Virus record (IMG/VR): IMGVR_UViG_2698536640_000019
Coordinates: 1-6,232 of that record
Source: a virus
Taxonomy: Duplodnaviria; Heunggongvirae; Uroviricota; Caudoviricetes
Direction: 5' to 3' (one strand)
Length of the DNA stretch: 6,232 nucleotides
The position numbers were made by a program, and so were the translations under genes. The notes under the pieces are model-generated. The model was not told where the DNA came from and ran no database searches. It saw only the letters and a program-made list of their open reading frames with translations. Positions 1,389 to 6,232 of this stretch are shown piece by piece. The stretch's first letter is position 1, and each line of letters starts with the position of its first letter.

Positions 1389-1682
1389 TTATTGCAATGT
1401 ATCTGGTGCGTTCTGCAAAGAACGGCGCTCAATGCTGCTTTTCACCCCCATAGCCTGCATGGAACCCTGTAGTTCATCTGTCAGAAACTGAATAATTGTG
1501 GGGCTGTGATATTTAAGAATTTGTGCATAAACATCACAGGGTCCTGCCGGTCTGTTCTCTGTATCACGTTCGATTTTTACCGTGGCAGTAACCCCCTCTG
1601 TGATTTCCTTACTATCATTACCGGCTGGCTTTACTTCATGCATTACGTGGTCAAATTCAAAAATAACGCGTACTTTGCTCAT
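1389..1682 (-). CDS. Small hypothetical protein (97 aa), paralogue of the adjacent 78-aa protein
   Basis: The ORF-track frame is trimmed to the internal ATG at 1682-1680 (MSKVRVIFEFDH...). Its N-terminus matches the neighbouring gene's MSKVVRIIFEYKEH, and the first 30 nt or so are also similar at DNA level. Stop TAA at 1389-1391, 11 nt before the gam start. Confidence 0.6.
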   Translation of the reverse strand: MSKVRVIFEFDHVMHEVKPAGNDSKEITEGVTATVKIERDTENRPAGPCDVYAQILKYHSPTIIQFLTDELQGSMQAMGVKSSIERRSLQNAPDTLQ

Positions 1683-1722
1683 GGAATTACCCCTGCTGAT
1701 TAAATTCATTACCTTTAATAAC

Positions 1723-1959
1723 CTAGGAACTCATGTCCATATCTTTCATGAGCGCACTGGCTTTCATTGCCACAAGTTCAGTAAAGTCTCTGCTTTCCGC
1801 GAGCATAACCACCCCAAAAATCATGGCAGGTCCATCACCTTTCTGCTTTATCCCGGTTGAACGTATGTCCAGACTTACCCCCATGCGCACTGTTCCATCC
1901 GCGTTTTTATGGATAACGTGCTCCTTGTATTCGAAAATAATGCGTACAACTTTACTCAT
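1723..1959 (-). CDS. Small hypothetical protein (78 aa), paralogue of the adjacent 97-aa protein
   Basis: The ORF-track frame (1723-2058) is trimmed to the internal ATG at 1959-1957 (MSKVVRIIFEYKEHVIHK...), which has GAGGACCAGAGG immediately upstream as a Shine-Dalgarno sequence. The longer track start would overlap the upstream 210-aa gene. Stop TAG at 1723-1725. Confidence 0.6.
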   Translation of the reverse strand: MSKVVRIIFEYKEHVIHKNADGTVRMGVSLDIRSTGIKQKGDGPAMIFGVVMLAESRDFTELVAMKASALMKDMDMSS

Positions 1960-2902: not shown

Positions 2903-3835
2903 TCACACCTGCGAGAGTAATTCAGGGTTGGTATAAACCTCTTTAAAGGCCGCATTAATATGTTTTTCTGTCAGCGCCGCGCCTTCACCGCTGGCGGTGA
3001 GCCACGCCTGGTTAAGCGTATGTGTCAGAACGCGTAACGCTCCCGGCTTTTCAGCGATAGCCTGCATGACGGCCAGCTCGGCCTCACCACTGATTCCCCA
3101 TGCCATGGCAATGGCCAGCACATCCGCCTTTTTGGCCTTGCGAAGTTGTTTTGTACGGGCAAGACGGCTGAACAGGCGCGATAAATCATCAAAGGCGCGG
3201 CGTCCACCTTTAAACAATCCGCGCGGGTTACCAATAAGCACCATCCCGATCCCCGTGGCGTCCTGAATTGCCCGGAGTTGCTCCAGACCGTCAATACCAA
3301 GATGATCCGCCTCATCCACAATCACCAGTCCACGCGTTCCCATCAGGCGACGGCGGATGGCGCGGGATAACGCCCCTTTGTTCGCGCGGGTATAATCAAT
3401 CCCCAGCGCATCGGCCAGCTCCAGCAGACACTCCGTGACGCTGGAATGCGCGGGAGACAGGGTGATCATCCAGGTGTTTGGTTGCTCCTGGCAGTAATTA
3501 CGGGCGGTGGCCGTTTTACCCACCCCGGGCACGCCCACTATGACGTTAATACAGCCCATCAGGCGGACCGCCTGAAACAGTGCGCGCAGCTCCTGGACTG
3601 TCTGTGTTTCCACAAACTGCGGCGGCTCCGGCAGAGAAGGCCGCTTTTTCCAGTCTTTGTACCAGGAGCGCATAGTCGCCGCGATAGCATCATTGTCTCC
3701 TTTATATTTCCCCTTGCGGAAAGCCGATAATGTACCGTCGGAAATTCCCGCCTCTCTGGCGATGACATACTGCGTCAGTACGCCGCCATCAATGAGTTCA
3801 TCAATGGTCTTGATTACATCGTTAATATCGGTCAT
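2903..3835 (-). CDS. B: MuB-like transposition ATPase / target DNA activator
   Basis: 310-aa product. From memory it matches Mu B (about 312 aa) in the motifs LPEPP.FVETQTV, the Walker A region G.PGVGKT, WMIT..P, L.E.DEADHLG, LSRA.RRRL.GT.GLVI.DEADHL, AKKADV.AIA.AW and AEKPGALR.L.H.L. ATG at 3835-3833 is preceded by GAGGT. Confidence 0.9.
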   Translation of the reverse strand: MTDINDVIKTIDELIDGGVLTQYVIAREAGISDGTLSAFRKGKYKGDNDAIAATMRSWYKDWKKRPSLPEPPQFVETQTVQELRALFQAVRLMGCINVIVGVPGVGKTATARNYCQEQPNTWMITLSPAHSSVTECLLELADALGIDYTRANKGALSRAIRRRLMGTRGLVIVDEADHLGIDGLEQLRAIQDATGIGMVLIGNPRGLFKGGRRAFDDLSRLFSRLARTKQLRKAKKADVLAIAMAWGISGEAELAVMQAIAEKPGALRVLTHTLNQAWLTASGEGAALTEKHINAAFKEVYTNPELLSQV

Positions 3836-3911: not shown

Positions 3912-5999
3912 TCAGGCCAGCGGATCACTTTCTTTTAATTTCGCTTCGAGCAGTTGCAATCCCCGCTGGAAATTACGCTCGTATTCTTCGTCAGTTTCAT
4001 CATCAGCGACCGGTTGCTGAACGGTCACCGTATTACCCACAGGGCGGTATATATTTTCCAGCCATGGCTCCTGTGGCTTGTGCTCCAGCACGTTGACAAC
4101 CTCATCCTCGGCATCACGGATTTTTTCCTCTGCGCGTTTACGCATACCTTTAAGGCGCTGCTGCTGTTTGTAGTATTCCGCGCTGACCGGGAAGGCTTCG
4201 CGTTTATTGCCGTCCCATACCGCCTCGCAAATCACGCTGCCATCCTGGCGACGCACGGTAATTCGTTCGGCATCATGAATGTCATAGCTGATAAGCACTT
4301 TGCGGCCATGTTCATCACGCAGCTCGGGCGCGTAGTAAATATTATTCAGCCAGCGTATTTCACAGCGTCTTACAGGGCGTTCCACCATCGGCCGGAACAT
4401 GTCCCGCAATTCCACATCGGACAGCCATTCAATTTCCGTGTCCTCTTCTGCCAGGCGTTTTTTTCTGAACTCCGCCGGGCTGTAATGTTTACCGTTCGGC
4501 TTCATGGGTAATTCATCGTGCGGCCGGTTGTTGTACCACTCAACGCCGTCACGAATGGCATCAATCAGTTCAGACCAGGACGGTAAATCACGCATCGCTG
4601 ACTGCTGCCGGGCGTTCAGCCGCTTGCCCTGTTGCAGGGCAGTGAATGCCGAGCGTAAATCGCGGTTGGTTTTGCGTAACGTCTCGCGATCTGCACCTTT
4701 CCCGAAATAGGTGCGGTATTTACGGGCTATGCGCATCGGTAATGTGCGGTTAAGCCGTTCGATAATGCCCCGTCCCTGCGGATTACCGGCAATCCCGGTC
4801 GGGTGATTAATCCCCAGTCGCGGTAGTATCCCCACAACCTCCTTATCCAGGATGTCGGCGGTTTCCCCGGAGCCATTATCCGAGTAATACAGAAACGGTT
4901 TGCCGTGATGTCGAATACCGTGCTGTATGGCACCGGCTACGGCGAAAACATTTTCAGCCAGGTCAAGGCTCCAGCCCACCACAAAGCGTGTACCGCCATC
5001 GATAACAAAGGTTACTTCCGGTGCAAATGGCCGCCCGTGAACCGGGTGCCTGCATTTCAGCTTCATGCCGTGACCGTCACCAATCCAGACATAGTTCACC
5101 GGCATTCTGGACCAGTCGCGGCGCGTGAATCCCTCAAGCTGGCGGTATTCACTGCCGGTCACCCGGCCTTTTTGTTTCACCACTTCCGGCAGTTTCTTCA
5201 TTGCGCGGCGAATGGTGTCATAAGACGGCATGATATCGAGCATATAAGGCTCATCAGCGTGCCGGTGCTGCCATTCAGCGACAAAATCCTCGTAAGCCTC
5301 GGTCATTGGTCGGCCGTTTGACTGGCGATACTGCGCCAGAAATTCGGGCAGCCAGTTAATATCTTCGGCTTTTATTTCCTGGCGCTTACCAGGTGCCAGC
5401 AAAAGCAGGCGTTCAGCGGCGTTCTGCGCCTTGTTAAAGGCTGCAATCCAGCGTTTCAGCGTGATTTCACTCAACGCGCGGCGGTTTCCCTTTTTGGCGT
5501 TCGCCGTCTCAACCATTGCCACAATGCGCTCGTCCAGTTGTGAACGTGCCAGGTTGTCAACGATAAACCGGATAGCCTTCGCGCAGCTGAAACCGGGTTG
5601 TTGCGCGACTTTCAGCACCTCGCTGACGATCGCGATTCGTGCCTCTGCCACTTTACGTTGGTTTTCAGTCAGGGCATTCAGGCGTTCGACCATCAGTTGT
5701 GGTGATCCGCGATATGCCTCCACCGCATCAACCACGACAGGTGAGCGTCTGGCCTTTGTCACCACCGGAGCCGGTGATTCATCGGCTTTTTGCGTCATCA
5801 GTTGCAGGGCGTAGCGTTCACGTAATGCCTGCTGCGTCACTTCAGGTAAACAGTCGATGCTGTATTCAAAACCTTTAGTGCCTTCCTGGCGGCGTCTGCT
5901 GGTTTCGCTGGTTGCATACTTCCTGATTGAATAGCGGACGCCTTGCTCCGTTCCCGGCATTCCCGGTAATCCAACCAGCTCTTTAACTGAAGCAAACAT
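3912..5999 (-). CDS. A: MuA-like DDE transposase (phage Mu transposase A family)
   Basis: 695-aa product. The N-terminus (VKELVGLPGMPGTEQGV...RRQEGTKGFEYSIDCLPEV) resembles the MuA end/enhancer-binding winged-helix domain. A candidate DDE core is present: WIGDGHG, then YYSDNGSG, then GRGIIERLNRTL. It lies directly downstream of ner (TAA-tt-ATG) and upstream of the B homologue, the canonical Mu order. Confidence 0.92.
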   Translation of the reverse strand: MFASVKELVGLPGMPGTEQGVRYSIRKYATSETSRRRQEGTKGFEYSIDCLPEVTQQALRERYALQLMTQKADESPAPVVTKARRSPVVVDAVEAYRGSPQLMVERLNALTENQRKVAEARIAIVSEVLKVAQQPGFSCAKAIRFIVDNLARSQLDERIVAMVETANAKKGNRRALSEITLKRWIAAFNKAQNAAERLLLLAPGKRQEIKAEDINWLPEFLAQYRQSNGRPMTEAYEDFVAEWQHRHADEPYMLDIMPSYDTIRRAMKKLPEVVKQKGRVTGSEYRQLEGFTRRDWSRMPVNYVWIGDGHGMKLKCRHPVHGRPFAPEVTFVIDGGTRFVVGWSLDLAENVFAVAGAIQHGIRHHGKPFLYYSDNGSGETADILDKEVVGILPRLGINHPTGIAGNPQGRGIIERLNRTLPMRIARKYRTYFGKGADRETLRKTNRDLRSAFTALQQGKRLNARQQSAMRDLPSWSELIDAIRDGVEWYNNRPHDELPMKPNGKHYSPAEFRKKRLAEEDTEIEWLSDVELRDMFRPMVERPVRRCEIRWLNNIYYAPELRDEHGRKVLISYDIHDAERITVRRQDGSVICEAVWDGNKREAFPVSAEYYKQQQRLKGMRKRAEEKIRDAEDEVVNVLEHKPQEPWLENIYRPVGNTVTVQQPVADDETDEEYERNFQRGLQLLEAKLKESDPLA

Positions 6000-6001
6000 A
6001 A

Positions 6002-6232
6002 TTACGCGACCTTACGAATGTAGCGGCTGGGCCAAATCTCCTCGGGTGGCACACCCAGGCATTCCGCAATAATCCCCTCATACTTGGGAACATGACGGTA
6101 TACCGCGTTGTACAGGTTATTCTGACCTACACCAGCTTTACGGGCCAGCGCCCTCATACTTCCTTCTCTGGCTCTGACTTCCCCCAAGATTCTTTGAGGA
6201 TGCCAATCAGGCTTAACTTCATTTCTCGCCAT
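6002..6232 (-). CDS. ner: Ner-like DNA-binding transcriptional regulator (Mu Ner family)
   Basis: 76-aa product. From memory it matches Mu Ner (75 aa) in DWH...I.......S...L.R..G.....L.NA..RH.PK.E.IIA..L...PE.IWPSRY. It lies immediately upstream of the transposase gene. The start codon sits exactly at the right window edge, so its promoter and operators are outside the window. Confidence 0.85.
   Translation of the reverse strand: MARNEVKPDWHPQRILGEVRAREGSMRALARKAGVGQNNLYNAVYRHVPKYEGIIAECLGVPPEEIWPSRYIRKVA

Follow-up and report, generated by a model that had tools for sequence, protein, structure and literature searches.

Two adjacent small genes in the early region of an E. coli transposable prophage, here called P1 and P2, probably encode two anciently diverged members of one family of small soluble proteins of about 90 amino acids (aa). 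The family occupies a slot of the early operon between kil and gam (or a DUF3164 gene), which in phage Mu is held by gp7/E6. The models predict a fold in which a long N-terminal beta-hairpin packs on C-terminal helices; the P2 model, which is the confident one, has two such helices. P1 and P2 are quite likely homologous over their full length, as indicated by several independent lines of evidence that are each moderate.

The two genes and their operon

The window, which is the whole stretch of 6,232 nucleotides analyzed here, is the early region of a Mu-like (Sp18-type) transposable E. coli prophage in which all genes are encoded on the minus strand. The gene order on this single strand is a Ner-like HTH gene (6002–6232), the MuA transposase (3912–5999), the MuB ATPase (2903–3835), a 75-aa gene assigned to phrog_3375 (2679–2906), a Kil-like gene directly upstream of P1 (2034–2261; phrog_2679 Kil, E 1.8e-39), P1, P2, a Mu Gam-like host-nuclease inhibitor directly downstream of P2 (847–1377; PF07352, E 2.1e-39; phrog_491), and a gene for a DUF5420 protein (184–774). 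The window is 93% identical to regions labeled 'inserted Mu-like phage' in two Stx-converting phage records. A 691-nt stretch spanning P1 and P2 is found in 232 of 5426 complete E. coli genomes, where PGAP annotates hypothetical proteins of 90 aa (P1) and 97 aa (P2). P1 and P2 form a tandem: they are neighbors on one strand of a single operon, and no promoter-like or terminator-like sites are found on the coding strand around or between them.

The Kil-like gene corresponds to the C-terminal 75 codons of an uninterrupted 210-aa open reading frame (ORF; 2034–2666, minus). Its N-terminal ~130 residues are similar to the N-terminal part of Mu gp8/E7 (E 1e-5 by BLASTP, 32% over 76 aa), and they also match phrog_3690 at E 0.038. 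The extra ~420 bp are missing in the closest complete genome (L001, E. coli 2012EL-2448) and are confined to 13 of the complete E. coli genomes; in three further loci (L076–L078), the gene callers give the 75-aa Kil alone (PF26843 Kil_protein). In E. coli 2012EL-2448, an IS1A element is inserted in the prophage early region (L001 1474–2171) beside a gp16 (GemA)-family gene; this prophage copy is probably defective.

The coordinates, lengths, and start sites given for both genes in the original prediction agree with the ORF list and the sequence. P2 (1389–1682, minus) is an intact gene of 97 codons and a TAA stop, preceded 7 nt upstream of its ATG by a Shine–Dalgarno-like AGGGG (1690–1694, minus). 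It matches phrog_2230 with an E value of 4.3e-36, with residues 3–97 on profile positions 1–88 of 89, and PGAP calls it as a 97-aa coding sequence in L001. P1 (1723–1959, minus) consists of 78 codons and a TAG stop (1723–1725, minus), with a Shine–Dalgarno-like GAGGA (1967–1971, minus) 7 nt upstream of its ATG. It matches phrog_4107 with an E value of 1.9e-50, with residues 1–78 on profile positions 1–78 of 90; the last 12 profile positions are uncovered because of the TAG codon.

The 78-aa form of P1 is a truncated allele and not the norm of the family. P1 is usually 90 (or 91) aa long in relatives, among which a few copies are truncated or frameshifted, and in most of them it ends in ...SSGVIKGNEFNQQG, with the general pattern ...SSGVI[KN]GNEFNQQG. 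A codon-by-codon comparison with 10 other haplotypes places TAG in the window where the others have GGG at codon 79, with a loss of 12 of 90 residues. The two-base change from TCC GGG to TCC TAG (window 1721–1726) also makes a CCTAGG palindrome. The untranslated 3' remnant of P1 (1687–1722, minus) still contains 11 codons, VIKGNEFNQQG, and the normal TAA at 1687–1689, and the ribosome-binding site of P2 sits inside it. In relatives, the P1 TAA lies 4 nt ahead of the P2 ATG, while the gap between the genes is 40 nt in the window. The identical 78-aa product is present in 80 blocks of an assembly index, which indicates a circulating allele and not a sequencing error; the 71-nt stretch at the nonsense codon has no match above 97.2% identity among complete RefSeq E. 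coli genomes. The P1 reading frame is otherwise intact and 96% identical to full-length alleles. Degradation of one copy, which the original prediction named as evidence against its proposal, is therefore seen in part, in the P1 nonsense codon 12 codons before the normal stop, while P2 is intact. In several viral contigs, P1, P2, or Gam is frameshifted or truncated (L030 3019–3550; L031, L068, and L069), for example to 41 or 65 aa in P1 and to 61 aa in P2, so many such prophages are decaying.

Sequence similarity and predicted structures of P1 and P2

Both proteins begin with MSKV..R.IFE: P1 starts with MSKVVRIIFEY and E. coli P2 with MSKVRVIFEF. The 5' segments that resemble each other are the first 18 codons of P1 (MSKVVRIIFEYKEHVIHK; 1906–1959, minus), which encode the predicted beta-strand 1, and the first 16 codons of P2 (MSKVRVIFEFDHVMHE; 1635–1682, minus), which encode the signature strand of the family. 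BLASTP aligns the two proteins with an E value of 4e-5 over 84 columns, and the local alignment has a z score of 7.9, with none of 2000 shuffles reaching the observed score; the N-terminal similarity that had been noted is real and beyond chance. The first 11–14 residues alone give a z score of 5.6, and the pairwise score falls to chance (z = 1.0) when the first 12–14 residues are removed. The same loss of signal leaves unsupported the earlier description of related acidic/Met-rich tails, and the ...MDMSS ending of P1 is itself made by the premature stop.

The similarity at the gene starts is also present at the DNA level, as had been proposed, with 39 of 48 aligned bases identical (81%) over the first 16–18 codons and two 3-nt indels; upstream of the ATG, the same alignment contains no DNA similarity between the genes. 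This identity needs no separate explanation because the conserved amino acids alone imply about that much, approximately 76% by a rough estimate that is not a tool result. Recent gene conversion as the source of the 81% identity was set aside on the basis of this estimate. An RNA-level explanation for the conserved 5' ends is not supported: there are no Rfam hits, and the predicted folding of the two translation-initiation regions does not exceed that of shuffled sequences (z −0.16 and +0.99). Exchange between phages at the starts of these genes is likely.

Profile comparisons suggest a relationship beyond the N-terminus. The hidden Markov model (HMM) of the P2 family, built from 77 sequences, was searched against a set of 1102 distinct ORFs (≥50 aa) drawn from collected loci. 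P1 variants were the sole non-self hits (E 1e-5 to 3e-3), and the next ORF was at E 11. The P1 sequences of two 90-aa alleles without their first 12 or 20 residues still match the P2-family HMM in register (E 0.007–0.02), and the P1 allele of the window without its N-terminus matches more weakly (E 0.17–0.44). In the reverse search with a P1 HMM, the next ranks are taken only by P2-type, Serratia, and Salmonella members of the family, at weak scores. Alignment of the P1 family with progressively deeper P2-family alignments by hhalign gives probabilities of 60–74% and E values of 3e-5 to 9e-5, colinear over 63–79 columns.

The AlphaFold model of P2 (pLDDT 85) has strands at residues 4–19 and 25–39 and helices at 48–58 and 60–77. 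The model of P1 (pLDDT 66) has strands at residues 3–18 and 24–38 and a helix at 57–73, with residues 44–55 below a pLDDT of 50. Strands of ~16 and 15 residues followed by a helix thus occur at matching positions in both models, and the predicted elements have the same order and length and coincide under the profile alignment, although the pLDDT of the P1 model is only 66. A shared fold, which the original prediction had proposed to check, would fit the matching hairpin and helix positions, with the low confidence of the P1 model weighing on the other side. Several observations count against the homology, namely the chance-level pairwise score outside the first ~14 residues, a profile–profile probability that tops out at 74%, the low-confidence P1 model, and the placement of P1 and P2 in separate PHROG families, with no cross-match of either protein to the other's PHROG at E ≤ 0.1. 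With the P2-family HMM, hhalign, and AlphaFold results weighed against these, P1 and P2 are most likely tandem diverged homologs, but a local duplication is not supported: the P1 body scores better against Salmonella homologs than against its neighbor P2, which makes a recent event of this kind unlikely. Either the second copy is an old one, or it was gained through recombination.

Distribution and variation of the family

Four positions are invariant in the 77 family members (V6, F8, F10, and G79), and nine are near-invariant (K3, I7, V35, A53, I55, L56, P61, I63, and E70). The conserved positions are mostly hydrophobic, and an alternating V-x-F-x-F lies in strand 1 of the model. Other subfamilies start in a related way, with MSNKVQVIFTFE in Salmonella and Citrobacter and with MAKVIFEF in Serratia and in an 89-aa Mu-type group. 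The MSKV.R.IFE[FY] motif is therefore the conserved hydrophobic core strand of the family and is not specific to the pair, and because this segment is the core strand, the P1–P2 similarity concentrates at the N-terminus and shows in the DNA. The phrog_2230 profile is matched by E. coli P2 and by the Salmonella (97 aa), Serratia (87 aa), and Mu-type (89 aa) proteins, and the 89-aa group aligns with the P2 family at an hhalign probability of 98.5%. Both phrog_2230 and phrog_4107, the highly significant matches of P2 and P1, respectively, are annotated as 'unknown function'; PHROGs treats them as two unrelated families, whereas they appear here to be remote homologs.

The family is narrow and is confined to the early ('semi-essential') operon of Mu-like transposable phages of enterobacteria. 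Searched exhaustively against 1.84 billion representatives, the P2-profile HMM returned only 13 hits, all of them family members or spurious repeats, and P1 was absent from these 13. A scan of one genome per species added one locus, in Citrobacter braakii, and a word-indexed search with a broadened profile gave ~100 clusters, of which almost all belong to Salmonella enterica and E. coli. No family was matched by P1 or P2 in Pfam-A (E ≤ 0.1), NCBIfam, or PADLOC (both E ≤ 1). The profile built from the 77 proteins found chance hits only among PDB sequences (E ≥ 0.29), a Foldseek search against BFVD returned nothing at E ≤ 0.001 and did not recover Mu gp7, and a literature search found nothing on the P1 and P2 genes or on Mu E6. 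The nearest known comparisons include dimerization modules made of two long strands and two helices (RNA polymerase alpha/RBP11-like and the M20 peptidase dimerization domain).

The family keeps a constant place in the genome. The slot is arranged as Kil, a P2-like gene, and DUF3164 in Salmonella; as Kil, a P2-like gene, and Gam in Serratia; and as Kil, an unrelated 90-aa gene, a P2-like gene, and DUF3164 in Citrobacter. The unrelated gene of Citrobacter braakii (MKSTITAYCWASGLIEFG...; L075 2226–2498) is at the position that P1 has in E. coli, with the Kil-like and P2-like genes as its flanks. A 212-aa DUF3164 protein replaces Gam after the P2-like gene in Salmonella (L072/L073 4303–4941) and Citrobacter (L075 2797–3435), and the DUF5420, Gp11_C, and Gp12 genes downstream are retained in these prophages.

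Phage Mu carries at this place of its early operon, between kil and gam, gp7 (old name E6; Mu_7, AAF01086.1; phrog_10252), an uncharacterized early protein of 87 aa that starts with MAKVIIEIK and resembles P1 and P2 in its size and start. Mu has this single gene, with gp8 and gp9 between gp7 and gam, whereas the window has both P1 and P2. Mu gp7 matches phrog_2230 weakly but over its full length (E 0.009), and hhalign aligns it colinearly with the P2 family (E 0.0016, probability 16%). Direct similarity of gp7 to P1 and P2 is not significant (HMMER E 17; hhalign probability 0.2–16%), and membership of gp7 in the family is not claimed; it is a positional counterpart of the family and possibly a remote relative. 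In a Mu-type viral contig (L105), the gp7 slot between the gp6-like and gp8-like genes is occupied by an 89-aa phrog_2230 protein starting with MAKVIFEFNN... (1501–1770), and the MuB, Kil, gp6, gp8, gp9, and Gam proteins of this contig are very similar to their Mu counterparts. The operon is thus conserved apart from an allelic replacement of gp7.

Copy number varies, a point that the original prediction had proposed to check. E. coli usually has two copies (P1 and P2) and rarely one, most of the E. coli loci read having both, and the relatives in Salmonella, Citrobacter, and Serratia have a single copy. The tandem two-copy state is specific to the E. coli Sp18-type lineage, in which it is polymorphic. 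E. coli CI5 and strains M1/M3 have P2 only, and CI5 is identical to locus L005 over the queried 201 nt. In these P2-only cases, the flank that usually precedes P1 meets P2 at ATGAG, and the two cases differ in their P2 allele class.

The E. coli P2 proteins fall into two allele classes that are ~60% identical and the P1 proteins into classes that are ~78% identical, and all four combinations of P1 and P2 classes occur. The Salmonella proteins form dozens of clusters that are only 25–40% identical to the P2 of the window. Among 26 distinct haplotypes, nucleotide diversity is approximately zero in two intervals, one surrounding the start of P1 (−39 to +35) and one running from the 3' end of P1 through the first 28 nt of P2, and it reaches 0.2–0.3 in the P2 body. 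In window coordinates, the islands of near-zero diversity, synonymous sites included, are at 1655–1725 and 1925–1998 (haplotypes from L004–L071). Together with the reassortment of alleles, the islands look like mosaic exchange, or recombination junctions, at the gene boundaries. Gene-wide dN/dS ratios (Nei–Gojobori) are 0.2–0.3 for P1 in most comparisons, 0.1–0.4 for P2, and 0.06–0.15 for Gam; a P1 value of 0.76 comes from one near-identical pair with very few substitutions and is uninformative. P1 and P2 are under purifying selection that is looser than that on Gam, and no gene-wide ratio above 1 was seen for either gene.

Alternative explanations and possible function

A chance match between unrelated short ORFs is a highly improbable account of the resemblance. 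The shortness of both proteins and the frequency of MSK- starts among well-translated E. coli proteins speak for it, but the shuffle test and the reciprocal HMM searches, in which the two families are exclusive best hits of each other among the 1102 ORFs, effectively refute it, and the genes are adjacent, on one strand, and of the same predicted architecture. A chimeric origin, in which only the first ~16–18 codons are common to both genes and the bodies are unrelated, has more in its favor. The common 5' segment would then have been copied or exchanged between the neighboring genes, either through gene conversion or through recombination at a 'linker' conserved at gene starts, of the kind seen at mosaic junctions in phages. 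The loss of pairwise similarity without the N-terminus agrees with this, as do a P1 N-terminus that is closest to the neighboring P2 beside a P1 body that scores better against Salmonella homologs, the near absence of nucleotide diversity at both gene starts compared with the P2 body, the free combination of P1 and P2 allele classes, and the single-copy haplotypes in which the usual P1 upstream flank is joined to P2 exactly at ATGAG. We nevertheless regard a chimeric origin as rather unlikely. The P1 body alone matches the P2-family profile in register in two alleles, and more weakly in that of the window, while unrelated ORFs reach only E ≥ 11 on this profile; the predicted strand and helix positions coincide in the two proteins; and the DNA identity is, by estimate, close to the level that conservation of the residues alone implies. 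The N-terminal motif is moreover kept in every subfamily, those with a single copy included, so no exchange specific to the pair is needed.

Two further alternatives concern the fate of the copies. P1 of the window may be decaying, inactivated by its nonsense codon, with P2 alone functional. This is a real but minority possibility in our estimate: the GGG-to-TAG double substitution removes 12 of 90 residues, frameshifted P1 or P2 genes of 41, 65, 61, or 15 aa are found in other prophage copies, and single-copy phages without P1 occur, but the missing tail falls after the last predicted helix (residues 57–73), its conservation may be at the nucleotide level as it overlaps the P2 ribosome-binding site, and the truncated allele is found in many assemblies with the remainder of its frame intact. 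The original prediction proposed a local duplication followed by diversification, a pattern it linked to families under arms-race selection such as inhibitors with different target specificities; on this view, the pair would be a recently duplicated inhibitor gene, diversified in an arms race, whose copies block different host-defense targets. The data are compatible with an inhibitor shaped by an arms race: the genes are small and non-enzymatic, are expressed early, and lie next to Kil and Gam; their allelic diversity is very high, both between the E. coli P2 classes and between the Salmonella clusters and the P2 of the window; the core is conserved while other positions vary; and alleles reassort with a polymorphic copy number. 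As a complete explanation it is unlikely, since the duplication is not recent, gene-wide dN/dS of 0.1–0.4 gives no sign of positive selection at that resolution, none of the inhibitor, defense, or anti-defense models examined is matched, and neither protein is strongly acidic. With pI values of 8.1 and 5.5 for the two proteins, mimicry of DNA in particular is unlikely.

Under the preferred explanation of two anciently diverged family members, P1 and P2 would be transcribed with the early operon and, as the genes are 4 nt apart in relatives, would probably be translationally coupled there. They share operon and timing with Mu Kil, which blocks cell division, and Gam, which shields DNA ends from host nuclease; the likeness is one of context only, with no similarity in sequence or fold. 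Kil and Gam are small, dispensable proteins that, by the GenBank annotation of Mu and what is generally known of this phage, act by binding host components. By analogy, P1 and P2 would most likely be dispensable early proteins that bind a host component, with a conserved core and a fast-changing surface. This model is drawn from the early operon, the Kil and Gam neighbors, the dispensable slot, and the combination of a conserved core with a variable surface. A role in binding a host factor or a defense component, judged from this context, is tentative. Each copy could have its own binding partner, or the two could form a pair. An improbable extension is that P1 and P2 form a heterodimer through their conserved N-terminal strands and jointly act as an early inhibitor of a host factor or an anti-phage defense. 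If so, the range of host variants that the prophage can overcome would depend on the reassorting, highly diverged alleles and on whether P1 is present, and the long-uncharacterized gp7/E6 slot of Mu would gain a function.

P1 and P2 are an ordinary pair of diverged accessory genes and do not represent a new type of system. In practical terms the gain is modest, in that phrog_2230 and phrog_4107 are tied to each other and, by position, to Mu gp7/E6; through this link, Mu genetics could address all of these genes together. Variability in alleles and copy number inside an otherwise conserved operon, as seen at this locus, is what genes involved in dealing with the host usually show. No new mechanism is in evidence, and the locus is a reasonable candidate for host-takeover or counter-defense screens.
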